The notes under the pieces: model-generated
Told to the model about the DNA's origin: nothing
The model's input: the letters and a program-made list of their open reading frames with translations, nothing else
Database searches by the model: none
Program-made: the position numbers and the translations under genes
Assembly (NCBI GenBank): GCA_963841905.1
Contig: CAWJEM010000015.1
Span: forward strand, 50,457 to 114,456
DNA length: 64,000 bases
DNA from: an uncultured Acidobacteriota bacterium
GTDB lineage: Bacteria; Acidobacteriota; Vicinamibacteria; Vicinamibacterales; UBA2999
Reading direction: 5' to 3'
In this document: positions 4,861-22,360 of the stretch, piece by piece
Layout of the letters: each line of letters starts with the position of its first letter
Position numbering within the stretch: the first letter of the stretch is position 1

Positions 4861-7371
4861 ATGCAGCGCCTACTGTTTGCGATTCCCGCGGCTCTCGTCG
4901 CGGCGCTGGGAGTCGCGGCGGCCACCAGTCAATCGCCTCGAACCCAGGGAGCCGCCCCGGCTCCCGTGGCCAGCCATTCGCCTGCCACGCAGACGACCAC
5001 CGCACAAAAGGACACCGCTGTAAAAGACATCGCCGTAAAGGACACCCCTGTAAGTGACCCTGCGTCGCAGACCCAACTCGTCAAGCAATACTGCGCGACG
5101 TGTCACAACGACCGCACCAAGGCAGGGCAACTCTCGTTCGCCAGCTTTGAGGCGGCGACGATCGAGCAGCATCCCGAGCTGGCCGAGAAAATGATTCGCA
5201 AGCTGCGGACGGGCATGATGCCGCCCGCCGGTGCGAAGCGTCCGGACGAAGCCACCCTCACCGCGTTCGTGTCGTCGCTCGAAAGTCGAATCGATCGCGC
5301 GGCCGCCTTGCGGCCAAACCCCGGTCACCGGCCCTTCCAGCGACTCAACCGCGCCGAGTACGGCCTCGCGATTCAGGGCTTGCTTGGCATCGATGTCGAC
5401 GTTTCGGCCTTGCTGCCACCTGACACGATCAGCCACGGCTTCGACAACATTGCCGACGTGCAGGTGTTCTCACCGACGGTGCTCGAGGGCTACCTTCGAG
5501 CGGCGGCGAAGATCAGCCGCGACGCGATCGGCGATCGAACCGCCGCGCCATCAGGCGTCATCTATAAGGTGCCGAGGACTGCAGCGCAGCTCAAGCACGT
5601 CGACGGAGCTCCGATTGGGACGCGCGGCGGCTCATCGCTCGTGCACATCTTTCCAGCGGACGGCGAATACACCTTCCGCATGATGTTCCACAGCATTCCG
5701 ACCGGACAGCTCTACGGGAGCACGACCCGCGGCGAGCAGATCGAGGTCTCGATCAACGGCGAGCGCGTGGCGCTGCTCGACATCAACCCACGGCTGAGCG
5801 AGGCCGACCCCAAGGGCATCAGCATCGAGACGCCGCCAATCATGGTGAAGGCGGGACCGCACCGCGTGTCGGCAGCATTCCTCGCACGATCCGAGAGTCC
5901 GGTTGACGATCTGCTCGCGCCTGTCGATTACACGCTGGCCGACACGCAAATCGGCAGCGCGATGGGCGTGACGACGTTGCCACACCTGCGCGAGCTGGCG
6001 ATCACCGGACCGAGCAAGGTTACCGGCGTCTCCGAAACCGTCAGCCGTCGTCGCATCTTTCAGTGTCGTCCCACGACGCCGGCGGAAGAGGCGCCCTGCG
6101 CGGAGCGAATCCTTCGCACGCTCGCGAACCAGGCGTACCGACGTCCGGTCAACGGCGATGAGATGCAGGGGCTGCTCGAGTTCTACGACGCGGGCCGCAA
6201 AGAGGGTGATTTCGAGACGGGCATTCGGACCGGGCTGCAGGCGATTCTTGCGAGCCCGCAATTCCTGCTGCGCCTCGAGCGCGCCCCCGCCGGCATCAAG
6301 CCCGGTCAGAACTATCGGATCAGCGACATCGATCTGGCGTCGCGACTGTCGTACTTCATTTGGGCTACGGTTCCCGATCAAGAGCTGATCAACCTCTCGA
6401 TGAAGTCGCAGCTGCGCGCGCCCGGGATGCTCGAGGCGCAGGTGCGGCGCATGCTCGAGGATCCGCGATCGGAAGCGCTCGCCACACGATTCGCATCGCA
6501 GTGGCTGCGGCTGCAGGATCTCGACAAGATTCACCCTGATGCCCTCACGTATCCGAAGTTCGATCACTATCTCGCCGAGGCCATGCGCCGCGAAACCGAA
6601 CTGCTGTTCGAGACGTTGATTCGCGAGGATCGCAGCGTGCTCGAGCTGCTGACGGCCGACTGGACGTTCGTGAACGAACGTCTGGCGCGGCACTACGACA
6701 TTCCGAACATCACGGGTGATCAGTTCCGGCGAGTGCAACTAGCTGGGGAGAATCGCCGTGGCCTGCTGGGACACGGCAGCATCCTGATGATGACCTCGGT
6801 GGCCGACCGCACCTCGCCGGTCAATCGCGGCAAGTGGGTCATGGAAGTGCTGCTCGGATCGCCGCCGCCACCGCCGCCCGCCAACGTGCCGGCCCTCGAA
6901 GAGACGAGTGGTGTCGCCGACGCGCGGTTGCTGTCGGTTCGTGAGCGGATGGAAGAGCATCGCAAGAATCCGGCGTGCACCTCGTGCCATCGGGTGATCG
7001 ATCCGCTGGGACTCGCACTCGAGAACTTCGACGTCACCGGCGCGTGGCGCATCAAGGACAACGGTGTGCCGATCGACCCGTCCGGCACGTTGTATGACGG
7101 CACCGCGATGAGCGGTCCGATCGAATTGCGACAGGCGTTGCTCAAGCGATCGAACGTCGTTCTGACGAGTTTTACCGAGAGCCTGATGACCTACGCGCTC
7201 GGCCGGCGGGTCGAACACTACGACATGCCGACGATTCGGACGATCGTCCGTGATGCAGGAAAGAACGGCCACAAGATGTCAGCGTTCATTCTCGGAGTGA
7301 TCGCCAGCCCGGCGTTCCAGATGAGCCGCGCCGAGGCCGTGGAAACGACAGCGGCACCAGAAGCACGTTAG
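4861..7371 (+). CDS. secreted cytochrome-c-motif protein, DUF1592/DUF1588/DUF1585-type (module 1, intact)
   Basis: ORF 4750..7371. Likely start is ATG 4861 (MQRLLFAIPAALVAALGVAAATSQ signal peptide). Motifs: LVKQYCATCHNDRTKAG (CxxCH), MIRKLRTGMMPPAGAKRP, LLGSPPPPPPANVP, NPACTSCHRVIDPLG (second CxxCH). Confidence 0.85.
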   Translation: MQRLLFAIPAALVAALGVAAATSQSPRTQGAAPAPVASHSPATQTTTAQKDTAVKDIAVKDTPVSDPASQTQLVKQYCATCHNDRTKAGQLSFASFEAATIEQHPELAEKMIRKLRTGMMPPAGAKRPDEATLTAFVSSLESRIDRAAALRPNPGHRPFQRLNRAEYGLAIQGLLGIDVDVSALLPPDTISHGFDNIADVQVFSPTVLEGYLRAAAKISRDAIGDRTAAPSGVIYKVPRTAAQLKHVDGAPIGTRGGSSLVHIFPADGEYTFRMMFHSIPTGQLYGSTTRGEQIEVSINGERVALLDINPRLSEADPKGISIETPPIMVKAGPHRVSAAFLARSESPVDDLLAPVDYTLADTQIGSAMGVTTLPHLRELAITGPSKVTGVSETVSRRRIFQCRPTTPAEEAPCAERILRTLANQAYRRPVNGDEMQGLLEFYDAGRKEGDFETGIRTGLQAILASPQFLLRLERAPAGIKPGQNYRISDIDLASRLSYFIWATVPDQELINLSMKSQLRAPGMLEAQVRRMLEDPRSEALATRFASQWLRLQDLDKIHPDALTYPKFDHYLAEAMRRETELLFETLIREDRSVLELLTADWTFVNERLARHYDIPNITGDQFRRVQLAGENRRGLLGHGSILMMTSVADRTSPVNRGKWVMEVLLGSPPPPPPANVPALEETSGVADARLLSVRERMEEHRKNPACTSCHRVIDPLGLALENFDVTGAWRIKDNGVPIDPSGTLYDGTAMSGPIELRQALLKRSNVVLTSFTESLMTYALGRRVEHYDMPTIRTIVRDAGKNGHKMSAFILGVIASPAFQMSRAEAVETTAAPEAR

Positions 7372-7436
7372 GCACTTTCGCACCATATGCACTGTAGGCA
7401 CGAGCACCCAGGCACGCTGAGGCACCGTAGGCACCT
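7371..7436 (+). repeat. strand-asymmetric GGCAC array (5x GGCAC plus 3x GCAC)
   Basis: GGCACTTTCGCACCATATGCACTGTAGGCACGAGCACCCAGGCACGCTGAGGCACCGTAGGCACC. There is no GTGCC complement within the array. The last unit runs into the Shine-Dalgarno sequence (GGCACCTTAGGAG) of the DUF1552 gene. Confidence 0.8.
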
Positions 7437-7448
7437 TAGGAGAGACCG

Positions 7449-8846
7449 ATGATCATCACGAAGAAGCACGTTTCCCGGCGCACTGTCCTGCGCGGAATGG
7501 GCGTGACGATGGCGCTGCCGTTCCTGGATGCGATGGTGCCGGCCCGGACCGTGTGGGCGAAGACCGCCGCGGCGGGGAAGATTCGCCTCTCCTGCATCGA
7601 ACAGGTGCACGGCGCCGCTGGCAGCACGAAGATTGGCCTCGAAAAGAACATGTGGTCGCCCGCGGCGGTTGGTCGCTCGTTCGATTTGTCGGCCACGAGC
7701 CTCAGCCCGCTCGAGCCGTTCCGCGACTACGTCACGATCGTGAGCAACACGGACGTGCGGAACGCCGAGGCCTTCGCGCCCAACGAGATTGGCGGCGATC
7801 ACTTCCGGTCGAGCGCGGTGTTTCTGACCCAGGCGCATCCGAAGCAGACCGAAGGGTCCGACGTGCACGTCGGTCCCTCGATCGATCAGCTCTACGCCCA
7901 GAAGTTCGGGCAGGACACCGCCATCCCCTCGATGCAGTTGGCGATCGAGAACGTCGATCAGGCGGGCGGCTGTGCCTACGGCTATGCCTGCGTCTACACC
8001 GACACCATCAGCTGGGCCGACGCCGAAACGCCGCTGCCGATGATTCGCGATCCGCGCTACGCCTTCGATCAGCTCTTCGGCGTCGGCGCGACCCCGCAGG
8101 AACGCGCGGCGCGGCGTCGCACCGATCGGACCATCCTCGACTTCATCTCGACCGAGATTTCACGGCTGCGCAACACGCTGGGGACGTCTGACCGGGCGCG
8201 TCTCGACAGCTATCTCGAGGACGTGCAGGAAGTCGAGCGTCGGATTCGTCTCGTCGAAGCGCGCAATACCAGCGGCGAAGAGCGCGAACTGCCGGGTGCG
8301 CCCGCCGGCGTGCCCGACTCGTTTACCGAGCACGTGAAGCTGATGTACGACCTGCAGGCGCTGGCGTTCGCGGGCGACATTACTCGTGTCTTCTCGTTCA
8401 AGACCGGTCGCGACGGTTCGGCGCGCGTCTATCCGGACAGTGGCGTCAACCTGCCGTTCCACCCGGCATCGCACCACGGCGAGCGCGAAGACCGCGTGAC
8501 GCAGTTTGCGGCCATCAACAAATACCAGGTCAGCCTGCTGCCGTACTTCATGGAGAAGCTGAAGTCGCTCAAGGAAGGCGACGGCAACCTGCTCGATCAG
8601 ACGGTGATCGTCTACGGATCGCCGATGGGCAACTCGAACGTGCACAACCACAAGCGCTGCCCGCTGTTCTTCGCCGGGCACGGTGGTGGCATGTTGAAGG
8701 GTGGCCTGCACCTGAAGGGCGCGGACGGCACGCCGATGGCCAATGTCCTCCTGACCTTGGCGCATGGCCTCGGTCTCGAGATGGCGAGCTTCGGCGACAG
8801 CACCGGCGAGTTCAACTTGAACGCGGTACCTGAAACGACTGTTTAG
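7449..8846 (+). CDS. DUF1552 protein with twin-arginine leader (module 1)
   Basis: MIITKKHVSRRTVLRGMGVTMALPFLDAM (Tat-like leader), IGGDHFRSSAVFLTQ, FHPASHHGEREDR (HxxSHH), GSPMGNSNVHNHKRCPLF. Confidence 0.9.
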   Translation: MIITKKHVSRRTVLRGMGVTMALPFLDAMVPARTVWAKTAAAGKIRLSCIEQVHGAAGSTKIGLEKNMWSPAAVGRSFDLSATSLSPLEPFRDYVTIVSNTDVRNAEAFAPNEIGGDHFRSSAVFLTQAHPKQTEGSDVHVGPSIDQLYAQKFGQDTAIPSMQLAIENVDQAGGCAYGYACVYTDTISWADAETPLPMIRDPRYAFDQLFGVGATPQERAARRRTDRTILDFISTEISRLRNTLGTSDRARLDSYLEDVQEVERRIRLVEARNTSGEERELPGAPAGVPDSFTEHVKLMYDLQALAFAGDITRVFSFKTGRDGSARVYPDSGVNLPFHPASHHGEREDRVTQFAAINKYQVSLLPYFMEKLKSLKEGDGNLLDQTVIVYGSPMGNSNVHNHKRCPLFFAGHGGGMLKGGLHLKGADGTPMANVLLTLAHGLGLEMASFGDSTGEFNLNAVPETTV

Positions 8847-8875: not shown

Positions 8876-8935
8876 TCCCTGTTCCCAGTTCCCTGTGCCC
8901 TCCCCTATGCCCTGTGCCCTGAGCCCTATGCCCTG
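8876..8935. repeat. CCCT[GA]TGCCCT-type word array (complement orientation of the AGGGCA family)
   Basis: TCCCTGTTCCCAGTTCCCTGTGCCCTCCCCTATGCCCTGTGCCCTGAGCCCTATGCCCTG. Lies between the DUF1552 stop and the ankyrin start. Confidence 0.7.
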
Positions 8936-8955
8936 TTTGAAAGTGGAGCCTGGAC

Positions 8956-10836
8956 ATGCTGCGACGAAGATTGGCAAGCGCGTTGGGTGTGAGCGTCGTA
9001 GGAGCGGTGTTTCTGAGTGCGGCAGTGCTCGGGGCGGCGACGGAAGCGCCGGTCGCCGAAGCGGCTCGCTCGGGAGACCGGGAGGCGGTTCGCGCCCTGT
9101 TGAAGCAAGGCATGGACGTCAACGCGTCGCAGGGCGACGGTATGACGGCACTGCACTGGGCCGCGCGGCTGGGCGACGTCGAGTTGGCGCAGATGCTGCT
9201 CTACGCGGGCGCCAACGTGAAGGCGATGACTCGGCTCGGTTCCTACACGCCGCTCCTGATGGCGGCGCAGATCGGCCACGCGCCGATGCTGGAGACGTTG
9301 ATCAAATCCGGTGGCGATCCGAAGGCGGCGACGAGCAATGGCACGACGCCCTTGATGCTGGCGGCGGCGTCGGGCAAGGCCGACGCGGTCCGCCTGCTGC
9401 TCGAGCACGGCGCCGATCCCAATGCCAAGGAATCAGCACGTGGCGAAACCGCGTTGATGTTCGCCGCCAACTTCAATCGTGTGGACGCGATGAAAACGCT
9501 CATCGAGAAGGGCGCCCAGATTGACGTTGCGACCAAAGTGACCGATCTCGCCGGCTTGACGAGTCCGGAGGAGGAGTTCTTCCGCCAGCAGCAGCAACAG
9601 CAGCAGGGCGGTCAGGGTCAGGGGCAAGGTCAGGGGCAAGGTCAGGGCCAGGGCCAGGGGCAAGCCCCAGGGCAAACCCAGGGACAAGCAGCCGGTCGCG
9701 GTCAGGGCGGCGGCCAAGGTGGTGGCCAAGGTGCACCTGCAGCGCAGGCGGCCGGTCAGGGCGGGGGACAAGGGGGGGGACGCGGCGCCGCAGGCGCTCC
9801 GGCGAATCGCGGGCCGGACATCGCAGGCGTGACGCGGCAGTATCGCTTCAACGAGCTGGTGAGCACCCAGGGTGGGTTGACGCCGCTCCTGTTTGCGGCT
9901 CGTCAGGGTCACATCGACGCCGCGGCCGCGCTCTTCGACGCGGGCGCCGACATCAATCAAGTGAGTCCAGGCGACAAGACGAGCCCCTTGCTCATGGCCA
10001 TCATCAACGGCCACTTCGACCTCGCGAACCTGATGATCGAGCGCGGCGCGGATGTGAAGCTCGCGAGCGACAACGGTGCGACGCCTCTCTACGCGGTGCT
10101 GAACGTTCAATGGGCGCCAAAGGCGCTGTATCCGCAGCCGCGCGCCTATACGCAGCAGAAGATGTCGCACCTCGATCTGATGAAGGTGCTCATCACCAAA
10201 GGCGCTGACGTCAATGCGCGGCTGAAGAAGAAAGTGTGGTACTCGGGCTACAATTTCGACCTCGCCGGCGTCGATGAGATTGGCGCGACACCGTTCTGGC
10301 GCGCGGCGTACGCGAGCGACACCGAGGCGATGAAACTGCTGGTGGCAAACGGAGCGGATCCCACGGTTCCGACAGCACGACCGGCCGGGCGGCCTCGCAC
10401 TGGCGATGGCGGTCGCGAGCAGGTGCAGGACGTGTCGGGTTTACCTCCGATCCCGGTGGGTGGGGCTGCCGTCACACCGTTGCAGGCGGCATCGGGCGTC
10501 GGCTACGCCGAGGGGTTCGCGGCCAACTCCCATCGCTATGCTCCGGGCGGGATGCTCGCGGCCGTCAAGTATCTGATCGAGGAGCTCGGCGCCGACGTCA
10601 ACGCGCGCGATCACGAGGGCAACACCGCCTTGCATCACGCTGCTTCACGCGGCGACGTCGAGATGATTCTGTATCTGGTGTCGAAAGGCGCGGACGTGAA
10701 AGCCGTCAACCGCGAAGGGCAGTCGACGGCCGATATGGCGAATGGACCCGTGCAGCGCACTCAACCCTATCCGGAAGCGTTGGAATTGCTCGTCAAGCTG
10801 GGCGCCAAGAACAACAACAAATGCGTCTCGTGCTGA
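8956..10836 (+). CDS. secreted ankyrin-repeat protein with Gln/Gly-rich linker (module 1)
   Basis: Signal peptide MLRRRLASALGVSVVGAVFLSAAVLGAA. Multiple G.TALHWAA/TPLMLAA..G...V..LL..GAD ankyrin units. Internal QQQQQQGGQGQGQGQGQ... linker. C-terminal KLGAKNNNKCVSC. Confidence 0.9.
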   Translation: MLRRRLASALGVSVVGAVFLSAAVLGAATEAPVAEAARSGDREAVRALLKQGMDVNASQGDGMTALHWAARLGDVELAQMLLYAGANVKAMTRLGSYTPLLMAAQIGHAPMLETLIKSGGDPKAATSNGTTPLMLAAASGKADAVRLLLEHGADPNAKESARGETALMFAANFNRVDAMKTLIEKGAQIDVATKVTDLAGLTSPEEEFFRQQQQQQQGGQGQGQGQGQGQGQGQGQAPGQTQGQAAGRGQGGGQGGGQGAPAAQAAGQGGGQGGGRGAAGAPANRGPDIAGVTRQYRFNELVSTQGGLTPLLFAARQGHIDAAAALFDAGADINQVSPGDKTSPLLMAIINGHFDLANLMIERGADVKLASDNGATPLYAVLNVQWAPKALYPQPRAYTQQKMSHLDLMKVLITKGADVNARLKKKVWYSGYNFDLAGVDEIGATPFWRAAYASDTEAMKLLVANGADPTVPTARPAGRPRTGDGGREQVQDVSGLPPIPVGGAAVTPLQAASGVGYAEGFAANSHRYAPGGMLAAVKYLIEELGADVNARDHEGNTALHHAASRGDVEMILYLVSKGADVKAVNREGQSTADMANGPVQRTQPYPEALELLVKLGAKNNNKCVSC

Positions 10837-10910: not shown

Positions 10911-13458
10911 ATGAAGCCAATCTTTCCCGCCACCTTTGGTGCCGTCGTACTGGGTGTCGGTCTGGCCCTTGCCGCCGGGCAGGCGCCGAAGGCACCGGCG
11001 CCGCCGGCCATTGCTGCCCCGTCTCGAGCCGCGGCCACACCGCCTGCGACCCAGCCGGCTGGCGGGGCCGCGTCGGCGAAGCGCGCCGCACCTCCGCTCG
11101 TGGCCGCGCATACCGCGGGCCCGACCGCCGCCGAGCAGACCGCGATTGTGAAGCGGTACCTGCGTCGGCTGCCACAGCGATCGCGCCAAGGCTGGTGGGC
11201 TGACGCTTGCCGCGTTCGATGCCGCCAATGCGACCTCGCAGGTCGAGATCGCGGAAAAGATGATCCGAAAGCTCCGCGCCGGCATGATGCCGCCCGCGGG
11301 CGCGAAACGACCCGAGGGCGAGGCGCTGCTCGGGCTCGCGCGCACGCTCGAAGACCGCATCGACCGCGCGGCGGCGCTCAATCCCAATCCCGGATTCCGC
11401 CCCTTCCAGCGTGCCAACCGCGCCGAGTATGCGCGCGCCGTGCGTGACCTGCTGGACGTCGAGGTCGATGTCAACACGTTCTTGCCGCCCGACACCATCA
11501 GCGACGGCTTCGATAACGTGGCCGATGCGCAGACGCTGTCACCGACGTTGATGGAAGGCTATCTGCGGGCCGCCAGTCAGATCAGCCGCCTTGCGGTGGG
11601 CGATCGCAACGCGACCGCGACCTCCGTCACCTACAAGATTCCTCGCGCCCGTTCACAGATGGCGCACGTCGACGGTGCGCCGATCGGGACTCGTGGCGGC
11701 GTGTCCGAGATCCACGTTTTCCCGGCCGACGGCGAATACATCTTCAAGGCGGCGATGCACTACGAGCCGCTCGGAGGGTTGACCGGACGAGCCACGATGA
11801 GCGCGTTCGGCTTGAGCGAGCTGATTGACGTTTCCATCGATGGCGAGCGCGTGGCGACGCTCGAGCTCAACTCTCGGATGAGCGAGTCCGATCCCAAGAA
11901 CAACCTCGAGCCGCAGACCCCACCGATTCACGTCAAGGCGGGTCCGCATCGCGTGTCCGCCGCCTTCGTGCAGAATTTCGAGGCCATTCCGGACGACCTC
12001 GTGGTCCCGCTGGAGAACACCCTCGCGGATGTCTCGATTGGGCAGGGCATCACGCTGCTGCCGCACATGCGCGAGCTGCGCATCATCGGCCCCTCTCGCG
12101 TGACTGGTGTCTCCGACACCCCGAGCCGGCGTCGCATCTTCACGTGCCGTCCCACGAGCGGCGCTGAGGAAGCGACATGCGCGCGCGACATCATCAGGCG
12201 GCTCGCGACTCACGCGTTCCGCGGTCCGGTCAGTGCAGACGATCTCGAAGGCCTCGAGGTGTTCTATCGCGATGGTCGTGCGAAGAACGACTTCGAGAGC
12301 GGCATTCGACTCGCGTTGCAGGCGATTCTCGCCAGCCCGCGTTTCGTGTTCCGGTTCGAAGAGGCGCCGCCAACCGTTCGTCCCGGGCAGAGCTATCGCA
12401 TCACCGACGCGGATCTCGCGTCGCGTCTGTCGTTCTTCCTGTGGGGAACCGCACCCGATGCCGAGTTGCTGAAGGTCGTGGCGAGCCGCACGTTGCGTAC
12501 GCCAGGTGTTCTCGACCGGCAGGTGAAGCGGATGCTTGCCGATTCGCACGCCGAGGCGTTGTCCACGCGGTTTGCGGCGCAATGGCTGAGGCTGCAGGAC
12601 CTCGACAAGGTCAATCCCGACTATCTCCAGTACCCGCAGTACGACGATCGACTCGCCGCCAGCCTTCGACGCGAGACCGAGCTGTTTTTCGACAGCCTCG
12701 TGCGCGAGGATCGCAGCTTGCTGGATTTGGTGACGGCCGACTACTCGTTCGTCGACGAGCGCGTGGCGCTGCACTACGGCATCCCGAACATCACGGGTCC
12801 CGAGTTCCGTCGCGTCACGCTCCCGGAGAACCGCCGCGGCATTCTTGGACACGGCAGCATCCTGGTGCTCACGTCGAACTCGGATCGCACGTCACCGGTC
12901 TATCGCGGCAAGTGGGTGATGGAGGTGCTGCTCGGCAGCCCGCCACCACCGCCACCACCCAATGTTCCCGAACTGGACGAGGTCAAACCGACTGCGGCCG
13001 GGCGTACGCTGTCCGTACGCGAGCGGATGGAGGAACACCGGAAGAACCCGACGTGCAACGCGTGCCACCGGGTGATCGATCCGCTGGGGCTGGCGCTCGA
13101 AAACTACGATCCGACGGGAGCCTGGCGCATCAAGGACAACGAGGTCGCCGTCGATCCGCAGGGCGTTCTGTATGACGGAAGCAAGGTCGATGGTCCGGCG
13201 AGTTTGCGGACCGCGCTCCTCCGACACAAGGATGCCCTGGTCTTCAGCTTCACCGAAAGCCTGATGACATACGCGCTCGGTCGTCGCGTCGAGACCTACG
13301 ATATGCCGGCGATTCGAGCGATTGTGCGCAATGCGGAGGCGAGCGGCTACAAGATGTCGGCCTTCGTCAACGGCGTCATCAAGAGCGCGGCGTTCCAGCG
13401 CGGAATGGCGCCGGTGGGCGAGGCGCGGGCGGCGGAAGCGGCGAGCAGTAGCCGATAG
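10911..13458 (+). pseudogene. DUF1592-type cytochrome-c-motif protein (module 2), frame broken by one extra base at 11160
   Basis: Signal peptide and linker (MKPIFPATFGAVVLGVGLALAAGQ...AIVKRY) lie in the frame of ORF 10893..11447. CVGCHSDRAKAGGLTLAAF...MIRKLRAGMMPPAG and the rest lie in the frame of ORF 11260..13458. The junction reads AAG CGG TAC c TGC GTC GGC TGC CAC. Confidence 0.8.
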
Positions 13459-13484
13459 GATCTGACGTGACAGGGCCACAGAGA

Positions 13485-13538: not shown

Positions 13539-13602
13539 ACTCTGAGGCTTCGTTCGTGGTCGGACAACGGCGGTTAGAATTCGACAATAGGGGCACGAAC
13601 CG

Positions 13603-14997
13603 ATGTTCATAGCGAAAAAGCAACTCTCGCGCCGCGAAGTCCTGCGGGGCATGGGCGTGACGGTGGCTTTGCCGTTCCTCGATGCGATGATGCCGGCGCG
13701 GGCAGCGCGGGCGCAGGCTGCGGCCGGCAGGGTCCGCTTGGCCGCCATCGAGATGGTCCACGGCGCAGCCGGCAGCACGAAGATCGGCATCGAGAAGAAC
13801 ATGTGGTCGCCGGCCGCCGCCGGGCGCGCCTTCGACCTCATGCCAACGAGCCTGAGCCCGCTCGAACCCTTCCGCGACCACCTGACGATCATCAGCAATA
13901 CCGACGTCCGCAATGCCGAGGCGTTCGAAGCGCCCGAGATTGGCGGCGATCACTTCCGATCGAGCGCCGTGTTCCTGACGCAGATGCACCCGCGTCAAAC
14001 CCAAGGGTCGGACGTCCGGGTGGGCACATCACTCGATCAGTTCTTCGCCCAGAAGCACGGCCAGGACACGGCCATCCCCTCGCTCCAGTTGTGCATCGAG
14101 AACGTCGATCAGGCAGGCGGTTGTTCCTACGGCTATTCTTGCGTCTACACCGATTCCATCAGCTGGGCCTCGCCGGAGGATCCGCTGCCGATGGTGCGCG
14201 ACCCGCGGGCCGTGTTCGACATGCTCTTCGGAGTCGGCGCAACGCCGCAGGAGCGCGCCGAGCGCCGCTCGGAGGACCGCAGCATCCTGGATTGGATTCG
14301 CGAGGACATGTCACGTCTGCGCAATACGCTGGGCAGCGCCGACCGGGCTCGCTTGAACGACTACCTCGAAGACATCTACGAGATCGAGCGCCGGATCAAG
14401 CGCGTCGAAGCGCAAAACAGCACGGGCGAGCCGCGCGAGCTTCCGGGCGCGCCGATTGGCGTCCCCGACTCGTTCGAAGAGCACATCAAGCTGATGTTCG
14501 ATCTGCAGGCGTTGGCATTTGCCTCCGATATCACGCGAGTCTTCGCGTTCAAGCTCGGTCGCGACGCCTCGAATCGGGTGTTCGCCGAGAGTGGCACCAG
14601 CACCGGCTTCCATTCGGCCTCGCATCACGGGGATCGTGAGGACCGCGTCACCGCCTTCGCGCGCATCAACCGGTATCACATCAGCATGCTTCCGTATTTC
14701 CTGGACAAGCTGAAGAAGACACCGGATGGCGACGGGACCCTCCTGGACAACACGCTCGTGCTCTACGGATCGCCGATGGGCAATTCGAACGTTCACAATC
14801 ACAAGCGTTGTCCGCTGTTCCTCGCCGGGCACGCGGCCGGCAAGCTGAAGGGTGGCCTCCATCTCAAGGCGCCCGACGGCACCCCAATGGCGAATGCGAT
14901 GCTCACCGTTGGCAACATGCTGGGCTTGGACTTCGAGAAATTTGGCGACAGCACCGCTGCGATGGACCTCAATCAAGCGCCCAGCACCACTGTTTGA
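13603..14997 (+). CDS. DUF1552 protein with twin-arginine leader (module 2)
   Basis: MFIAKKQLSRREVLRGMGVTVALPFLDAM, FHSASHHGDREDR, GSPMGNSNVHNHKRCPLF. Collinear with the module 1 and 3 copies. Confidence 0.9.
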   Translation: MFIAKKQLSRREVLRGMGVTVALPFLDAMMPARAARAQAAAGRVRLAAIEMVHGAAGSTKIGIEKNMWSPAAAGRAFDLMPTSLSPLEPFRDHLTIISNTDVRNAEAFEAPEIGGDHFRSSAVFLTQMHPRQTQGSDVRVGTSLDQFFAQKHGQDTAIPSLQLCIENVDQAGGCSYGYSCVYTDSISWASPEDPLPMVRDPRAVFDMLFGVGATPQERAERRSEDRSILDWIREDMSRLRNTLGSADRARLNDYLEDIYEIERRIKRVEAQNSTGEPRELPGAPIGVPDSFEEHIKLMFDLQALAFASDITRVFAFKLGRDASNRVFAESGTSTGFHSASHHGDREDRVTAFARINRYHISMLPYFLDKLKKTPDGDGTLLDNTLVLYGSPMGNSNVHNHKRCPLFLAGHAAGKLKGGLHLKAPDGTPMANAMLTVGNMLGLDFEKFGDSTAAMDLNQAPSTTV

Positions 14998-15018: not shown

Positions 15019-15053
15019 AAATGGCCGAGGTTGAACCCCTCGGCCATTTTTTT
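15019..15053 (+). terminator. canonical intrinsic terminator
   Basis: Stem AAATGGCCGAGG, loop ttgaacc, stem CCTCGGCCATTT, followed by a T-run (TTTTTTT). Lies 22 nt after the DUF1552 (module 2) stop. Confidence 0.8.
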
Positions 15054-15081: not shown

Positions 15082-16252
15082 ATGCGCCGCTCGACCCTTG
15101 TTCTTCTCGTATTGTCGTGGCGGCGAGCGCGGCGGGATGTGCAAGAGGGTGCAATGGGGCCATCTGCTTCGAGCCGCATCGACCCTGGGCCGCGCTCCAT
15201 CGACCGCCTGAGCGTCCTCGAGCGTCGTTCAATTCTCGAGCGCGCGCAGGTGTGGCGCCCAATTGATACCGCCAGGCTCAATCTGATCAGCGGTCCAGCG
15301 GCCGCCGATGGTTTTCCATTCGACGCCTCAGCAGCCTGCGACTATCACTTCCCTGACAAGCCCCTGTCGGGCGTCACGCCGAAATTCGAGTGCGCCTTAC
15401 GGCCCGGCGGCAAGGACGTCGTCAAGGTGAAGTACGGCGAGACCAACGGTGAAGTGTACGCGGAGGTCGCCGGCAGCCGGCTGTTCTGGGCGCTCGGGTT
15501 TGTCGTCGATCGGATGTATCCCGTCAGCGTGCTGTGCCGCAACTGTCCGCCCGATCCGTTCAAGGAAGGCAAGGAGGACTGGGATTTCGGCAAAAGCGCC
15601 AAGGGTGCGACGAGGCGGTACGGGACGGCGGTCATCGAGCGCGACGTCGAACGGTGAGAAGGTCGAGGTGCCAGACTACGAGGGCTGGGCGTGGCCCGAG
15701 CTCGACTTCGTCAGCGAGGAATCGGGCGGTGCGCCGCGCGCACATGTCGATGCCTTGAAGCTGCTCGCCGTCTTCGTGCAGCACGTTGACAACAAGCCGG
15801 AGCAGCAGGCCATCGTGTGCACCGATTCGCGCGAGCGTCGCGATCGGGCAGGCAATGCGACCTGTTCGGCGCCGATTCTCGTCGTCAAGGATCTGGGCTC
15901 GACGTTTGGCGGGGCGAAGCTGTTCAACTACGACAAGATGAAATTGGACAGCTGGCGAGAGGTGCCCATCTGGCGTGACCCGGCGACGTGTGAAGGTGAC
16001 CTATCACGCAGCCTCATCGGTAATCTGGAGCACCCAACGATCAGCGAGGCCGGCCGCAGATTCCTGGCGACACGCCTGTCGATGCTCAGCGATCGCCAGC
16101 TACACGACCTCTTTACGGCGGCCCGCGTCGAGCGCCGGGGTGATACCACCCGAGACGCAGACGGTCCTCGGCGGCCAGTGACCGTTGCCGACTGGGTTGG
16201 CGCGTTCAAAGCGAAGCGGGCGCAGATTGTGAATCACAAGTGTCCTGCGTAG
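15082..16252 (+). pseudogene. hypothetical Cys-containing secreted protein; reading frame interrupted near 15650
   Basis: ORF 15082..15657 (...VKVKYGETNGEVYAEVAGSRLFWALGFVVDRMYPVSVLCRNCPPDPF...AVIERDVE) continues in the frame of ORF 15449..16252 (GEKVEVPDYEGWAWPELDFV...HVDALKLLAVFVQHVDNKPEQQAIVC...). The junction reads GTC GAA c GGT GAG. No family recognised. Confidence 0.6.
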
Positions 16253-16362
16253 GGCTATAGAGGGCATAGGGCATCAGGGCATAGGGCATAGCAGGGCATA
16301 AGGGCCGCTACTCCCTCCTGTGCCCTGTGCCCTATGCCCTACGCCCTATGCCCTACGCCCTG
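16252..16362. repeat. long imperfect inverted repeat of AGGGCAT-type words
   Basis: Left arm GGGCTATAGAGGGCATAGGGCATCAGGGCATAGGGCATAGCAGGGCATAAGGGCC. Right arm TGTGCCCTGTGCCCTATGCCCTACGCCCTATGCCCTACGCCCTG. Begins at the stop codon of the preceding gene. Confidence 0.85.
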
Positions 16363-16400
16363 TAAGTGTCTGTCAATGGACCACTTACCAGAGACAATCG

Positions 16401-16431: not shown

Positions 16432-16487
16432 AACGCTCGTCGTTACATATACTTTTGCCGGCCGGCCGTCAGGGGCCGAGGTCAGAC

Positions 16488-19005
16488 ATGAATCGACTCG
16501 TCGTGTCGATGCTGGTGGTAGGAGTTGCGGCGCTTAGCGCCCAGTCTGCCGTTTCGCAGGCGCAGCGACCCTCGCCTCCTGCGACGGTCGCTCAGCCCAC
16601 CACGCCGTCTTCAAAACCCTCTGCATCACGGTCAGAAGCTCCCAAGTTGTCGTCGACACATCAGCCGTCTACCGATGCCCAGACGAGGGCTGCTGCACAG
16701 ACGGCTCTGGTCAAGCAGGTACTGCACGAGCTGTCACAACGATCGCACCAAGGCCGGCCAGCTCACGCTCGCCGCGTTCGATGCCTCCAAGGCCGCAGAC
16801 AGTGCGCCAATTGTCGAGAAAATGATTCGCAAGCTGCGCGCCGGGATGATGCCCCCGGCGGGTGCGAAGCGACCGGATGGGCCCGCGCTGACGACCCTTG
16901 CCGCCGCGCTCGAGACGCGCATCGATCGCGCGGCGGTGCTCGATCCCAATCCTGGGTTCCGTCCCTCGCAGCGGCTGAATCGTGCGGAGTACGCCAACGC
17001 GGTGCGCCAGCTGCTCGGGCTCGATATCGACGTCAACGCGTTTCTGCCGCCCGATACCCTGGCGCACGGCTTCGACAACATCTCAGAAGAGCAGGGGGTG
17101 TCGACCGCGGTGATGGAGGGCTACCTGCGCGCCGCCAGCGCGATCAGTCGTCTGGCCGTCGGCGATCGCAACGCGTCGCCGACCTCCACGATCTACAAGC
17201 TGCCACGCGACGGCACCCAGATGCGGCATGTGCGCGGCGCACCGGTTGGAACACGCGGCGGCGTCTCCGTCGTTCACATTTTCCCGGCCGACGGCGAGTA
17301 CGTCTTCAAGATGCTGCTGCACAGCGGTCCGACTGGCGATTTGTTCGGCGGCGCCACCCGCGGCGAGCAGATTGAGGTGTCGATCAACGGCCAGCGCGCG
17401 GCCGTGCTGACCATCAACCATCTGATGCGCGAGTCCGATCCGAACGGGCTCAACCTGCAGACGCCGCCCATCATGGTGAAGGCCGGCCCACAACGCGTGT
17501 CGGCTGCTTTCATCCAGACCGCCGACGGTCCGGTGGACGACCTCGTCGCCCCCATCGAGCACACGCTGGCGGACACGAACATCGGCGAAACCTTTGGCGT
17601 GACCGCGCTTCCGCACCTGCGGGAGTTTGCGGTGACGGGACCCCAGAAGGTCATCGGCGTTTCAGACACGCTCAGCCGTCGGCGCATCTTTTCCTGCCGG
17701 CCAACGACGGCGCAGGAGGAGACGGCCTGTGCGAACGAGATCATCAAGCGTCTGGCGCTGCAGGCGTATCGCGGCACGGCGACCGGTGACGACCTGTCGG
17801 ATCTGAGTCGTTTCTATCAGCAAGGACGGAAGGACGGCGACTTCGAAGCCGGCATTCGCCTGGCGCTGCAGGCCATCCTGGCCAATCCGCGGTTCGTGTT
17901 CCGTCTCGAGCAGGCGCCGCCGACGCTGCGCGCGGGGCAGACCTACCGGATTACCGACCTCGATCTCGCGTCGCGCTTGTCGTTCTTCCTCTGGGGCACC
18001 GTGCCCGACGAAGAATTGGTCAGGGCCGCGACCAGCGGCGGGCTGCGAACGCCGGCCGGGCTCGATCGTCAGGTCCGTCGGATGCTCGAGGATTCACGGT
18101 CCGAAGCTGTGGCCACTCGATTTGGCGCGCAGTGGCTCCGGCTGCAGGACATCAAGAAGAACCGGCCGGATCCGCTGCTCTACCCACAGTGGGACGACAC
18201 TCTCGCCGATGCCTTCAAGCGCGAGACCGAGCTGTTTTTCGACAGCATCGTCCGCGACGATCGCAATGTGCTCGATCTCCTGACGGCGGATTACACGTTT
18301 GCCAACGAACGGATTGCCAAGCACTACGGCATTCCCAACGTGATGGGCAATCAGTTCCGTCGTGTAGCGCTGCCGGACGAGTCGCGTCGCGGCATCCTCG
18401 GGCACGGCAGCGTGTTGCAGCTCACGTCAGTGGCCGATCGCACGTCGCCTGTGCTGCGGGGCAAGTGGGTGATGGAAGTGCTCCTGGGGACGCCGCCGCC
18501 ACCTCCGCCGCCGGGTGTGCCCGACTTCGAGGAGACCAAGGGGGTCAAGGATGCTCGCACGCTGTCGGTGCGCGAGCGCATGGAGCAGCATCGCGCCAAC
18601 CCGTCGTGCAACTCGTGTCACCGCGTGATCGATCCGCTCGGCCTGGCGCTCGAGAACTTCGATCCTTCGGGCAAGTGGCGGATCAAAGACAACGGCGTCG
18701 TCGTCGATCCGACCGGGGTGATGTACGACGGTACCAGACTCAATGGCCCGGCGGATCTGCGTCAGGCGCTCATGAAGCACTCGGACGCGATTCTCTCGAG
18801 CTTCACCGAGAGCCTGATGACGTACGCGCTCGGCCGTCCGATTGAGTACTACGACATGCCGACCATCCGCGCGATCGTCCGCGACGCGGGCAAGAACGGC
18901 AATCGGATGTCTTCGTTCATCACTGGGGTCGTGAACAGCAGCGCATTTCGAATGGCGCGGGCGTCGGCGGTCGAAACGACAGCCGCCTCGCAGCAGGGAC
19001 AGTAG
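16488..19005 (+). pseudogene. DUF1592-type cytochrome-c-motif protein (module 3), frame broken by one extra base at 16719
   Basis: MNRLVVSMLVVGVAALSAQSAVSQA...AAQTALVKQ lies in the frame of ORF 16455..17375. YCTSCHNDRTKAGQLTLAAF...MIRKLRAGMMPPAG...NPSCNSCHRVIDPLG lies in the frame of ORF 16525..19005. The junction reads AAG CAG g TAC TGC ACG AGC TGT CAC. Confidence 0.8.
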
Positions 19006-19140
19006 GCACGGAAGCAACGACGCACGGCACGGGCTTACAGCGGCACAGAACACGGGAAGCACCTCAGGCACCCAAGCACTGCGATGCACTGAGGCACCCG
19101 CACCCAGGCACGACAGGCACGTTAGGCACAGAAGGCACCT
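19004..19140 (+). repeat. strand-asymmetric GGCAC array (9x GGCAC)
   Basis: AGGCACGGAAGCAACGACGCACGGCACGGG...CAGGCACGACAGGCACGTTAGGCACAGAAGGCACC. There is no GTGCC in the array. It ends in GGCACCTTAGGAG just before the DUF1552 ATG, as in module 1. Confidence 0.8.
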
Positions 19141-19151
19141 TAGGAGCAGCG

Positions 19152-20558
19152 ATGTTTATCAGCCAAAAACACCTTTCCCGACGCACGGTGTTGCGCGGCT
19201 TGGGCGTGACGATGGCCCTTCCGTTCCTCGAGGCCATGGTGCCGGCGCGGCGCGCGCTGGCGAAGACCACGGCTGGAAAGGTCAGGCTGGCCGCGATTGA
19301 GATGGTGCACGGCTCGGCCGGTGCCACCGCGATTGGGCTGCAGAAGAACATGTGGTCACCGGCGGCCGTGGGTCGTAACTTCGACCTCACACCGACCAGC
19401 CTCACGCCGCTCGAGCCGTGGCGCGACTACGTCACCATCGTCAGCAACACTGACGTGAGGAATGCCGAAGCGTTCGAGACGCCGGAGATTGGCGGCGATC
19501 ACTTCCGCTCGAGCGCGGTGTTTCTCACCCAGGCGCACCCTCGTCAGACGAAGGGATCCAACGTCTTCGTCGGCAAGTCGATGGATCAGTTCTACGCGCA
19601 GCGTTTCGGGCAGGAGACGGCGATTCCGTCGATGCAGTTGTGCATTGAGGCCGTCGATCAGGCGGGCGGCTGCTCCTATGGATACTCGTGCGTCTACACC
19701 GACACCGTCAGCTGGGCGTCCGAGACGCAGCCGTTGCCGATGATTCGCGATCCGCGGTTCGCCTTCGACCAGTTGTTTGGCGTGGGCGCGACCCCGCAGG
19801 AACGGGCCGAGCGTCGCCGCGAGGATCAGAGCATCCTCGATTCAATCAGCGCAGCGGCTGGACGGCTCCGCAACACGCTGGGTGCCGCCGATCGCGCCCG
19901 GCTCGCCGCCTATTTGGACGAAGTGCGCGAGGTCGAGCGCAGAATCCAGTTGGTCGAAGCGCGCAACAACAGCGGCGTGGAACGCGAACTGCCGGGGGCT
20001 CCGGCGGGCGTGCCCGATTCGTTCTCCGAGCACATCAAGCTGATGTTCGACCTGCAGGCGCTGGCCTTCGCGGGCGACACGACGCGGGTGTTCTCGTTCA
20101 AGCTTGGACGCGACGCGTCGAGCCGTTCCTACCCGGAGAGCGGGACGAAGAGCGCGTTCCACCCGGCGTCACATCACGGCGAGCGCGAGGATCGCATTGT
20201 CGACTTCGCGAAGATCAACACCTACCACGTCAGCATGGTGCCGTACTTCCTCGACAAGCTGCGCAACACGCCCGATGGCGACAGCAACCTGCTCGAGAAC
20301 ACGCTCGTCATTTACGGCTCGCCGATGGGCAACTCGAACGTGCACAACCACAAGCGCTGCCCGTTGTTCCTGGCGGGGCGTGCCGGCGGCCATCTCAAGG
20401 GCGGCTTGCACTTGAAAGCACCCGATGGCACGCCGATGGCCAATGTCTTCCTGACCTTGATGCACAAGCTCGGGTTGGATGACGTCGACAAGTTTGGGGA
20501 CAGCACGGGTGAGTTCAATCTCACGAGCGTGACTGAGACCACCGAGGTTCGTTCGTAG
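19152..20558 (+). CDS. DUF1552 protein with twin-arginine leader (module 3)
   Basis: MFISQKHLSRRTVLRGLGVTMALPFLEAM, FHPASHHGEREDR, GSPMGNSNVHNHKRCPLF. Confidence 0.9.
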   Translation: MFISQKHLSRRTVLRGLGVTMALPFLEAMVPARRALAKTTAGKVRLAAIEMVHGSAGATAIGLQKNMWSPAAVGRNFDLTPTSLTPLEPWRDYVTIVSNTDVRNAEAFETPEIGGDHFRSSAVFLTQAHPRQTKGSNVFVGKSMDQFYAQRFGQETAIPSMQLCIEAVDQAGGCSYGYSCVYTDTVSWASETQPLPMIRDPRFAFDQLFGVGATPQERAERRREDQSILDSISAAAGRLRNTLGAADRARLAAYLDEVREVERRIQLVEARNNSGVERELPGAPAGVPDSFSEHIKLMFDLQALAFAGDTTRVFSFKLGRDASSRSYPESGTKSAFHPASHHGEREDRIVDFAKINTYHVSMVPYFLDKLRNTPDGDSNLLENTLVIYGSPMGNSNVHNHKRCPLFLAGRAGGHLKGGLHLKAPDGTPMANVFLTLMHKLGLDDVDKFGDSTGEFNLTSVTETTEVRS

Positions 20559-20608
20559 CTCCAGGCCTCGCTGGTGCCGAGAGCTCTACCTCGCCAGGGA
20601 AACGTGCG

Positions 20609-22360
20609 ATGAAACGTCTTACGAGTGCCGCTCGATTGAGTGTCGTCGGGGCCATAGGCCTCACGGCCGTCCTCTCCGCGCAGGGCGCGTCCCAAGTGGC
20701 CGATTCGGCGATGGCCAAGGACGCGACCGCGGTTCGCGCGCTGTTGAAGCAGGGCGCGGACGTCAATGCTGCTCAGGGCGACGGCATGACCGCCCTCCAT
20801 TGGGCCGCGATGAACGGTGACCTCGAGCTGGCGCAGATGCTGATGTACGCGGGCGCCAATCCGCGAGCTGGGACACGGCTCAACGGCTATACGCCATTGT
20901 TTCTTGCGAGTCGCGAGGGTCAGGCGTCAATCGTCGAGGCATTGCTGAAGGCGGGTGCCGAAGCCGATGCGCGCTCCTCGACCGGCTCGACCCCGCTCAT
21001 GTTGGCGGCAGCATCCGGGAACGTCGAGGCCGTCGGGCGGCTGCTCGATGCGGGCGCCGATCCAAAGATCAGGGAGACCGCACGCGGACAAACCGCGCTC
21101 ATGTTCGCCGCGGCTTACAACCGCGTCGGCGCGGTTGAGCTCCTGGCCAGGCGCGGTGCCGACGTGAGCGCGACCAGCAAAGTCGTCGACTTGTTCGAGC
21201 TGACGCGAGAAGAAGCCGCCGCACCAGCCGCACCTGCCGGCACTGGTGGTGGCGCTGGCGGCGGTGGGCAGCGAGCAGGCGGACAAGCCGGCCCGGGTGG
21301 ACCGGGCGGCACGCGACCAGCGGCGGACGCGCCCAAGCGTCCGCAGATTCCGGGTCTCGACCGCGGCTACAACTACACCGAGCTGATCGCCTACCAGGGC
21401 GGGATGACGGCGCTGATGTTCGCGGCGCGCGAAGGTCACATCGAGACCGCCAGGGCACTGCTGGACGCGGGCGCGAACGTGGACCAGGCGCGCGTGGGCG
21501 ACCAGACGACCCCGTTGCTGATGGCGACGATCAATGGTCACTTCGATCTGGCGAAGTACCTCCTCGATCGCGGCGCCGATGCGACGCTGGCGGGCGAGAA
21601 CGGCGCCACGCCGCTCTACGCCGCACTCAATTGCGTGTGGGCGCAGAAGTCCAACTATCCACAGCCGCGTGCGTTTGCACAGCAGACGCTCACATACCTC
21701 GATCTCATGTCCGCACTGCTCGACAAAGGGGCCGATCCCAACGTGCGGCTGAAGAAGAAGATCTGGTACTCGGGCTACAACTCGGACCTGTCAGGGGTGG
21801 ACGAGACCGGCGCCACACCGTTCTGGCGTGCCGCCTACGCGAGCGATATCGATGCCATGAAGCTGCTGGTGGCTCGTGGAGCGGATGCCAAGCTGCCCAC
21901 CGTCAAACCCGCGGGCCGTCCGCCGTTTGGCGATTCCCCGCGCGAGGTCAAAGACGTGTCCGGGCTTCCGCCCGTGCCCGTGGGTGGTTCTTCCGTGACA
22001 CCCCTGATGGCTGCCACAGGCGTTGGCTACGCCGAAGGGTTCGCAGCCAACTCCCACAAGATCCATCCCGCTGGCTGGATGCCGGCGGTGAAATACCTGG
22101 TTGAAGAGCTTGCCTCAGACGTCAATGCCAAGGACCATGAGGGAAACACCGCGCTGCACAATGCCGCCGCGCGCGGCGACCTCGAGATGATTCTGTATCT
22201 CGTCTCCAAGGGAGCGGATGTCAAGGCCGTCAACCGCGAGGGCCAGACGACCGCGGACATGGCCAACGGGCCGGTGCAGCGAACGCAGCCGTATCCCGAA
22301 GCCGTCGAGCTGTTGGTAAAACTCGGCGCGAAGAACAACAATAAGTGTGTTTCGTGTTAG
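20609..22360 (+). CDS. secreted ankyrin-repeat protein with Gly/Pro/Ala-rich linker (module 3)
   Basis: Signal peptide MKRLTSAARLSVVGAIGLTAVLSAQGA. Ankyrin units (GMTALHWAAMNGDLELAQMLMYAGAN...). Linker AAPAAPAGTGGGAGGGGQRAGGQAGPGGPGG. Same C-terminal KLGAKNNNKCVSC as the 8956..10836 copy. Confidence 0.9.
   Translation: MKRLTSAARLSVVGAIGLTAVLSAQGASQVADSAMAKDATAVRALLKQGADVNAAQGDGMTALHWAAMNGDLELAQMLMYAGANPRAGTRLNGYTPLFLASREGQASIVEALLKAGAEADARSSTGSTPLMLAAASGNVEAVGRLLDAGADPKIRETARGQTALMFAAAYNRVGAVELLARRGADVSATSKVVDLFELTREEAAAPAAPAGTGGGAGGGGQRAGGQAGPGGPGGTRPAADAPKRPQIPGLDRGYNYTELIAYQGGMTALMFAAREGHIETARALLDAGANVDQARVGDQTTPLLMATINGHFDLAKYLLDRGADATLAGENGATPLYAALNCVWAQKSNYPQPRAFAQQTLTYLDLMSALLDKGADPNVRLKKKIWYSGYNSDLSGVDETGATPFWRAAYASDIDAMKLLVARGADAKLPTVKPAGRPPFGDSPREVKDVSGLPPVPVGGSSVTPLMAATGVGYAEGFAANSHKIHPAGWMPAVKYLVEELASDVNAKDHEGNTALHNAAARGDLEMILYLVSKGADVKAVNREGQTTADMANGPVQRTQPYPEAVELLVKLGAKNNNKCVSC

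Follow-up and report, generated by a model that had tools for sequence, protein, structure and literature searches.

An ankyrin-repeat gene as a conserved third member of cytochrome/DUF1552 gene modules in tandem arrays of Acidobacteriota

We describe here a set of repeated gene modules in an uncultured Vicinamibacterales-type soil acidobacterium, found in a 64,000-nucleotide stretch of contig CAWJEM010000015.1 (assembly GCA_963841905.1, positions 50,457 to 114,456), which is referred to below as the window. Between window positions 4861 and 22360, eight plus-strand genes are grouped as three consecutive modules, each consisting of a gene for a large protein with two CxxCH haem motifs (DUF1592 and associated domains) and a gene for a DUF1552 protein (HXXSHH, PF07586), with a third gene encoding a signal-peptide-bearing ankyrin-repeat protein in modules 1 and 3. 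Sequence divergence and gene order in relatives indicate that a conserved operon is present here in three old paralogous copies, arranged in tandem, and that the middle one is without the third gene; the ankyrin gene appears to be a genuine conserved third member of this predicted secreted gene set. The DUF1592/DUF1552 pair is among the so-called planctomycete-specific cytochrome families, which are very abundant in soil and water bacteria and for which we know of no function assigned in two decades. What is known is this uncharacterised pair; no paper that we could find mentions either a conserved ankyrin/CxxC third gene or tandem arrays of the modules in Acidobacteriota, and we take these two features to be new.

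Divergence and recurrence of the array

The DUF1552 gene lies directly downstream of the large gene in 3/3 copies in the window, and the full order is ADH, module 1, module 2, gene U, module 3, DUF2911 and DUF5916 (Table 1). An earlier sequence-only reading of this DNA had proposed three consecutive same-strand modules, and these are where it placed them, with two corrections: it spoke of nine proteins where we count eight, module 2 having two, and it took 10911-13458 (2548 nt) and 16488-19005 (2518 nt) as genes, neither of which is a multiple of three or a single open reading frame (ORF). All of the Pfam families that it named (DUF1592, DUF1588, DUF1585, DUF1587, DUF1595, DUF1552 and Ank) were found, and the DUF1552 motifs that it quoted are present, except that module 2 has VALPFLDAM instead of MALPFLDAM.

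The window copies share 61-64% of their residues in the large protein, 72-75% in the DUF1552 protein and 66% in the ankyrin protein; at the DNA level they are about 76% identical, with a synonymous divergence (dS) of 0.8-1.65. The ratio of nonsynonymous to synonymous divergence (dN/dS) is 0.17-0.28 between window paralogues, and for the large, DUF1552 and ankyrin genes of module 3 it is 0.17, 0.08 and 0.14 respectively in comparison with L001, a 9-kb JGI contig that is 97% identical to window positions 16331-25366. Purifying selection acts on all three genes.

The window arrangement recurs, whole or in part, in the loci L002/L004, L003, L005, L008 and L029, with orthologues that are 86-99% identical, which indicates that the array predates these species. 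With differences at about 24% of DNA positions, the copies cannot be an assembly duplication. To the broader proposal of an assembly artefact, collapsed repeats included, we give next to no credence: the tandem layout is the only point in its favour, whereas the copies also differ at 25-39% of residues, and in other genomes each is matched by orthologues of its own, arranged in the same order. The amplification is ancient and conserved across species rather than recent. Copy number varies among close relatives, as L029 (CAVRUW010000011.1) carries ADH, module 1, module 2, U, DUF2911 and DUF5916, with module 3 missing.

Linkage of the ankyrin gene to the pair

Gene order in relatives was surveyed by searching a DUF1552 alignment against one representative genome per species and reading the neighbouring genes by tblastn. 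The survey yielded 73 non-redundant loci (about 63 metagenome-assembled genomes, MAGs), nearly all labelled Vicinamibacterales or Acidobacteriota, and it covers one DUF1552 subfamily at least 70% identical to the query; overall, our comparisons take in the closest 80 loci and 11 distant ones. Within the 73 loci the large gene is followed by a DUF1552 gene in every instance (118/118), the DUF1552 gene is followed by an ankyrin gene of this family in 94 of the 112 cases with downstream context, and the ankyrin gene is preceded by a DUF1552 gene in 100 of 100. The median gaps between tblastn matches of neighbouring genes are 66-107 nt. Complete modules were counted in 76 loci, including the window and two overlapping loci, of which 47 have one module, 23 have two, and 3 have three. 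The exceptions to the three-gene order are ankyrin-free pairs inside arrays and orthologues of module 2, which gene U follows; the module 2 orthologues of L002-L005, L008 and L029 are likewise without a following ankyrin gene.

Because the main survey was limited to DUF1552 proteins at least 70% identical to the query, the search was widened to distant relatives. When cluster representatives were searched with the C-terminal half of the ankyrin protein, giant generic ankyrin proteins dominated the matches, and only those that aligned end to end were used. These relatives are 45-57% identical, some with Gemmatimonadota names, and the order large gene, DUF1552, ankyrin is present in six of six readable contigs, one of which has two modules; in another contig (L081) the DUF1552 and ankyrin genes overlap by 4 nt. 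The plasmid collection yielded its closest DUF1552 protein (37% identity) from a replicon of 1.33 Mb in the cultured Novosphingobium sp. KACC 22771, where the gene is preceded by a large gene that has its domains in the same order and followed by an ankyrin gene with a signal peptide; this module occupies about 943.3-948.5 kb of NZ_CP117882.1. No ankyrin gene was found beside the pairs of Planctomyces sp. SH-PL62, Chondrinema litorale and two Sphingobium plasmids. This distribution confines the ankyrin member to one subfamily of the pair, and that subfamily crosses phylum boundaries.

Alternatively, the ankyrin gene might be no more than a lineage-specific passenger, kept beside the pair by common descent without being functionally tied to it. 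The main-survey loci all belong to a single DUF1552 subfamily, so that shared ancestry inflates the counts, and some pairs have no ankyrin gene. However, the order is kept in independently duplicated arrays, in contigs with otherwise unrelated flanking genes (L076-L081) and in an alphaproteobacterium, and it persists where identity has fallen to 37% for DUF1552 and to about 45% for the ankyrin protein. Neighbouring genes overlap or are separated by short gaps, all 100 family members with upstream context sit behind DUF1552, and the ankyrin protein is under purifying selection. We regard the passenger explanation as improbable, and favour the ankyrin gene as a conserved member of the set. The sequence-only reading had named a lack of ankyrin enrichment beside such pairs as a ground for abandoning its proposal of an amplified three-component secreted system; the counts show the reverse, and the proposal is supported both by the recurrence of the array in relatives and by the strong ankyrin linkage. 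It had also supposed that a recurrent signal-peptide ankyrin third member was undescribed, and our searches of the literature (DUF1552, DUF1592, PSCyt3, ankyrin) found no functional study and no mention of an ankyrin partner.

Domains and predicted structures of the three proteins

The predicted Sec and Tat (twin-arginine translocation) export signals described here were read by eye from the sequences. All three large proteins, those of modules 2 and 3 scanned as frame-corrected sequences, match PSD3/DUF1587, PSD5/DUF1595, PSD4/DUF1592, PSCyt3/DUF1588 and PSD2/DUF1585, in that order and above the Pfam gathering score, with E-values of 1e-17 to 1e-45; for the N-terminal haem domain the PSCyt1/Cytochrome_CBB3 matches are weak and below cut-off. 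The module 1 protein is composed of a putative Sec signal peptide, a low-complexity linker, a class-I-like haem c domain (CATCH plus GMMPP), PSD3, a beta-sandwich resembling carbohydrate-binding module (CBM) families 6 and 35, PSD5, PSD4, PSCyt3 with the second CxxCH, and PSD2. Both the signal peptide and the two CxxCH motifs had been pointed out previously, and the motifs (C78/C81/H82 and C706/C709/H710) are unchanged in 60 homologues; the PSCyt3 motif C..CH...DP.G is kept across phyla. An AlphaFold2 model of the large subunit (local confidence score, pLDDT, 73.6; predicted template-modelling score, pTM, 0.73) gave Foldseek matches only for the beta domain (residues ~230-390), and these were to CBM6/35/36 modules (probability 0.98-1.0, E 0.014-0.12).

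The DUF1552 proteins are assigned firmly to HXXSHH/DUF1552 (E 9e-83 to 1e-87, 279-294 bits against a cut-off of 30), with the HxxSHH motif appearing as HPASHH or HSASHH; this motif belongs, with GGDH and NVHNH, to a conserved cluster of His and Asp residues. Every copy has a putative twin-arginine leader, SRR(T/E)VLRG followed by a hydrophobic stretch, in agreement with what the sequence-only reading had said of this protein, and the RR leader is kept across phyla; the Pfam TAT_signal model gives weak matches, below cut-off, in 50 of 63 DUF1552 homologues. The AlphaFold2 model of the module 1 DUF1552 protein has a pLDDT of 63 and a pTM of 0.76, and in a Foldseek search of the PDB it matches only enzymes of the alkaline-phosphatase superfamily (sulfatases, LtaS, BcsG, the phosphonoacetate hydrolase PhnA, and ENPP), weakly (E 4e-3 to 0.02, TM-score 0.29-0.40). 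Sulfatase, DUF1501 and phosphatase families were not found in a relaxed Pfam scan of the 63 DUF1552 homologues. There was no meaningful PDB sequence match for the DUF1552 protein, the large subunit or the gene U protein, and NCBIfam has no curated family for any component, with ankyrin matches far below its cut-offs. An exact search of public assemblies for the module 2 DUF1552 protein of the window gave no record.

The third genes match the Pfam families Ank, Ank_2, Ank_3, Ank_4 and Ank_5 (E 1e-42 to 1e-66), and the PDB sequence matches are to ankyrins and designed ankyrin-repeat proteins (DARPins). Members of the family are bipartite proteins of 540-730 residues; in that of module 1 a signal peptide precedes two ankyrin blocks, one N-terminal and one C-terminal, which are separated by a disordered linker rich in G and Q, and the tail ends in ...NNNKCVSC, whose two cysteines are the only ones in the protein. 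The tail N-[NH]-[KR]-C-V-S-C is present in 120/120 of the closest homologues, and all of these with a complete N-terminus have a signal peptide. The C-terminal CxxC is retained in most of the distant relatives; the Novosphingobium ankyrin protein is shorter and is without the CxxC tail.

Frame breaks in the large genes

As the sequence stands, the signal peptide and a Pro/Ala/Thr-rich linker of the module 2 and module 3 large genes are in one frame, and everything from the first CxxCH onward is in the +1 frame. Alignment of the three copies places one extra base in each broken gene, just 5' of the first CxxCH. The module 1 site is unbroken (AAG CAA TAC TGC), the module 2 site reads AAG CGG TAC [C] TGC with the extra C at 11160 (11159/11160) within GCGGTACCTGC, and the module 3 site reads AAG CAG [G] TAC TGC with the extra G at 16719 (16718/16719) within GCAGGTACTGC. 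The conserved K-Q-Y-C codons ahead of the haem site constitute a palindrome, GCAGTACTGC, and in the window the two error sites span 11148-11170 and 16710-16732. Contig L001 has an intact large gene of 838 residues with CAGTACTGC at this position, and the extra G is the sole frame-breaking difference between it and the window in about 9 kb.

The palindrome site was collected from 75 related loci. Its frame-intact form would be CAGTACTGC or CGGTACTGC, and the corrupted forms have a G before TAC, a C after TAC, both together, or an A>G or A>C substitution. Corruption is seen in 11 of 19 long-read instances (window included) and in 0 of 61 short-read-type instances (Fisher p = 7e-9), and is confined to the window and to MAGs with names of the form 'MFD ... 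contig_N' (L002, L003, L004, L008, L029, L047, L048 and L069); long-read loci whose codons do not make the palindrome are never broken. The MFD genomes were assembled from Nanopore reads only and polished once with Medaka (PMC12313526). In L008, a 95%-identical MFD MAG, the module 2 site is likewise corrupted and there are many single-base insertions in coding sequence. The error effect is tied to a longer palindrome, CAGTACTG, and this motif is perhaps methylated. GTAC methylation as a general cause was considered and rejected, as the window has 135 GTAC sites, mostly inside intact ORFs, and sites with a 5' G or a 3' C are not more frequent in long-read loci than in short-read loci. Because the site is palindromic, both strands would show the basecaller the same k-mer and could not correct each other.

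We conclude from this comparison that the frame breaks are best read as systematic long-read consensus errors, not as pseudogenes or recoding, and that the module 2 and module 3 large genes are most likely intact in the organism, a view which the dN/dS of the module 3 large gene supports. If they were real pseudogenes, only module 1 would be functional and the array would be decaying. Both genes are indeed frame-broken as given, the neighbouring gene U is also disrupted, as is ppk1, and the module 2 orthologue of the long-read genome L002/L004 is broken in several places beside an intact module 3. There is, however, exactly one break per gene with the other 2.3 kb free of stops, the module 3 gene shows a dN/dS of 0.17 relative to L001, the breaks lie at paralogous positions no more than 4 nt apart, the corruption follows the sequencing technology and includes symmetric G and C insertions, and the 97%-identical short-read-type contig is intact. 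A decaying array accordingly seems to us hardly probable. Less probable by far is a programmed +1 ribosomal frameshift, or other recoding, that would regulate cytochrome synthesis. It would account for two paralogues being shifted at nearly the same codon directly 5' of the haem motif, but the shift is missing in module 1, in L001 and in all 61 short-read instances of the same codons, the inserted base differs (G before TAC and C after TAC), and the sequence offers no slippery codon, zero-frame stop or prfB-type upstream Shine-Dalgarno-like stimulator. Consensus error thus remains the preferred explanation. A crude scan for further frameshifts, based on changes of frame in third-codon-position GC content (GC3), was too noisy and was not used.

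The L002/L004 genome (OY970174.1, MFD01275.bin.c.18) presents a different pattern. Its module 2 orthologue (L002:588-4720) has at least six breaks in the large gene and one in the DUF1552 gene, and the adjacent module 3 (8.7 kb) has none, a pattern too uneven for random read error. It may reflect real decay or a local low-coverage problem.

Intergenic elements, gene U and flanking genes

The coordinates of the array and its immediate surroundings are collected in Table 1. A terminator after module 2, previously placed at 15019-15053, is real, with boundaries shifted slightly to those in the table; it consists of GGCCGAGG-TTGAACC-CCTCGGCC followed by T7, and its fold has an energy of -24.6 kcal/mol (z -5.1). 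The hairpin between gene U and module 3 is built of (AGGGCAT)n followed by (CCTATGC)n and folds with -75 kcal/mol (z -7.1). Repeat-built intergenic hairpins of this kind, in which a tandem array of a 7-8 nt unit is followed by an inverted array, are located at 1039-1156, 2361-2539, 8877-8936, 16253-16365, 25356-25445, 32940-32965, 43135-43160 and 45083-45115; their units include (AAGTTAC)n/(AACTTGT)n, (GTTCCAAC)8/(GGAACTCT)9.6 and, twice, (AGGGCAT)n/(CCTATGC)n. They look like a family of terminators or insulators. A promoter-like site at 16401-16430 was the lone sigma-70 scan match in 19.5 kb, fewer than in shuffled sequences, and we give it no weight.

Table 1. Positions of genes and other elements of the array and its downstream flank in the window
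Feature	Position	Strand	Remarks
Module 1 large subunit	4861..7371	+	836 aa, intact ORF
Module 1 DUF1552/HXXSHH protein	7449..8846	+	465 aa; Pfam HXXSHH; SRRTVLRG leader
Module 1 ankyrin protein	8956..10836	+	626 aa; Pfam Ank families
Module 2 large subunit	10911..13458	+	848 aa after removal of one base
Module 2 DUF1552 protein	13603..14997	+	464 aa; no ankyrin gene downstream
Intrinsic terminator, 3' of module 2	15023..15053	+	From sequence and RNA fold
Gene U, between modules 2 and 3	15082..16252	+	Broken orthologue of a 387-aa ORF
Long repeat-built hairpin, between U and module 3	16253..16365	+	From RNA fold
Module 3 large subunit	16488..19005	+	838 aa after removal of one base
Module 3 DUF1552 protein	19152..20558	+	468 aa
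Module 3 ankyrin protein	20609..22360	+	583 aa; signal peptide, CVSC tail
DUF2911 gene	22431-22973	+	Pfam
DUF5916/CBM9-like gene	22986-25355	+	Pfam

The spacers between the large and DUF1552 genes of modules 1 and 3 (7372-7448 and 19006-19151) are rich in AGGCAC repeats and end in the Shine-Dalgarno sequence GGCACCTTAGGAG, and in the module 2 spacer 13459-13560 forms a near-perfect 100-nt hairpin (-52.5 kcal/mol, z -7.7). These spacers may be elements for mRNA processing, mRNA stability or subunit stoichiometry.

Gene U, to which the sequence-only reading made no reference, sits after module 2, at the place of an ankyrin gene. Its orthologue in L002 (4690-5853) is a lipoprotein-like ORF, and the window copy is broken by an extra C at 15648; tblastn of the region against L002 gives matches in two frames, and L008 was also compared. 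The signal-peptide region looks garbled in the window. The protein has no Pfam, NCBIfam or PDB match, and motifs seen by eye (VKVKYGE...EVYAEVA and HVDxKPxQ) recall a protein-kinase-like fold. Gene U is probably not part of the module.

Downstream of the last module, DUF2911 and then DUF5916 are found in the same order in L001, L002, L012 and L029. In about 15 loci the last ankyrin gene has a DUF5916 gene after it; in L079 the DUF5916/CBM9-like gene (L079:611-2944) is found upstream of the module, next to SusC/SusD-like genes. The DUF2911 and DUF5916 genes may be linked to the array, and the DUF5916/CBM9-like protein might be an outer-membrane or substrate-capture component. Further along, the minus-strand polyphosphate kinase gene ppk1 (34340-36150) has its N domain in one frame and the last 45 residues of the middle domain with C1/C2 in another, with about 130 middle-domain residues missing; a real deletion or a pseudogene would explain this, as would a misassembly.

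Discussion

The PSCyt3 and PSD domains were first defined in Rhodopirellula baltica. The array described here resembles the PSCyt3/PSD and DUF1552 pairs of Planctomycetota and Verrucomicrobiota in the domain set and order of the large protein, the DUF1552 gene directly downstream, the RR leader and the C..CH...DP.G motif, and differs from them in the signal-peptide ankyrin third gene and in the tandem modules, which we see in Acidobacteriota, in Gemmatimonadota-labelled contigs and in one Novosphingobium. PSCyt3 genes are reported usually to adjoin one unknown family, CBM domains are encoded together with PSCyt in some genes, and genomes of the oxic layer (epilimnion) contain more PSCyt genes; a similar tentative view of function was taken for Verrucomicrobia, with function unassigned (He et al. 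2017, PMC5615132).

Three other systems bear comparison. SorAB and SoxCD are periplasmic substrate:cytochrome c oxidoreductases in which the catalytic subunit is exported by Tat and the cytochrome c subunit by Sec. The present modules share with them a predicted Tat-exported cofactor-type subunit beside a Sec-exported c-type cytochrome, a likeness in design only, as there is no molybdopterin, flavin or iron-sulfur domain and the candidate catalytic subunit is modelled as resembling hydrolases of the alkaline-phosphatase superfamily. A parallel two-gene design, with a Sec-exported haem-motif protein beside a Tat-exported sulfatase-like protein, is seen where PSCyt2/PSD1 genes accompany DUF1501. 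That combination, PSCyt2/PSD1 (DUF1549/DUF1553) and DUF1501, is the second conserved pairing described (He et al. 2017, PMC5615132). It involves different Pfam families, and none of those domains is present in the module proteins of the window.

The third comparison is with the catalase-associated ankyrins, which are small proteins of roughly 170-200 residues. AnkB-KatB of Pseudomonas aeruginosa, Cj1386-KatA of Campylobacter jejuni and AnkB-CatB of Xanthomonas are presented as ankyrin proteins encoded in the same operon as a haem enzyme, which they bind and whose activity or haem loading they promote, with P. aeruginosa AnkB described as periplasmic (PMC10294975). Co-encoding of an ankyrin protein with a haem-motif protein is common to both systems. 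In contrast to AnkB and Cj1386, the ankyrins of the window type are bipartite, with a disordered linker and a C-terminal CxxC, and are partnered with a cytochrome/DUF1552 pair; the sequence likeness is that of generic ankyrin repeats only, and we found no catalase gene in either the window or the 80 examined loci.

In the model that we propose, the three proteins would act together in the periplasm. The DUF1552 protein would be a catalytic metalloprotein, folded and loaded with metal in the cytoplasm before Tat export, and the Sec-exported large subunit (about 840 residues) would bind a glycan-like or polymeric substrate and, by way of its two haems, exchange electrons with the respiratory chain. 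The ankyrin protein would be a dedicated partner, either an assembly or stabilising scaffold or a thiol/metal shuttle acting through the terminal CxxC, a role proposed by analogy with the ankyrin proteins that support catalases, and paralogous modules would differ in substrate. A 'split' variant in Sphingobium herbicidovorans (pMSHV, L085, 44923-49069) ties the pair to (membrane) electron transfer: there, a short DUF1592 protein without the N-terminal haem and beta-sandwich domains is followed by DUF1552, cytochrome c', cytochrome b561 and an SDR oxidoreductase gene.

We consider it probable that the gene families, their order and linkage, purifying selection, the export signals as read and the technology-linked breaks are as described, and that the three proteins act together. 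The specific roles given to the three proteins are a good deal more tentative, and we hold them to be rather less likely than not. A bolder version seems to us unlikely; it would have a hitherto unrecognised three-subunit periplasmic redox enzyme, widespread in soil Acidobacteriota, with an obligate ankyrin subunit whose CxxC tail swings as a thiol/metal shuttle into the DUF1552 active site, and with each module oxidising a different glycan- or organic-ester-type substrate and passing electrons via the two haems to aerobic respiration.

Several points weigh against our interpretation. Eighteen of the 112 DUF1552 genes, including that of module 2 in the window, have no following ankyrin gene, so that the ankyrin protein either is not needed by every pair or serves several pairs from one copy, and the CxxC tail is not universal, given its absence from the Novosphingobium protein. 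The DUF1552 model is of medium quality (pLDDT 63) with weak structural matches (E at least 4e-3, TM-score 0.3-0.4), no sequence profile was found that joins DUF1552 to the alkaline-phosphatase superfamily, and redox chemistry would be unusual for that superfamily. The roles suggested for all three families are likewise drawn by inference from sequence, and we infer from the error signature alone that the window is a long-read assembly.

These findings have several consequences. For those who annotate such genomes, the palindrome GCAGTACTGC represents a reproducible error site in Nanopore-only MAGs that makes false pseudogenes in this gene family. The linked ankyrin partner, with its invariant terminal CxxC, defines a subfamily with richer constraints, and Novosphingobium sp. 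KACC 22771 is a cultured carrier that should be open to knock-outs and pull-downs. The system is likely to matter for the use of organic matter by Vicinamibacterales, since these bacteria are an abundant group in soils and some of the genomes have two or three modules.

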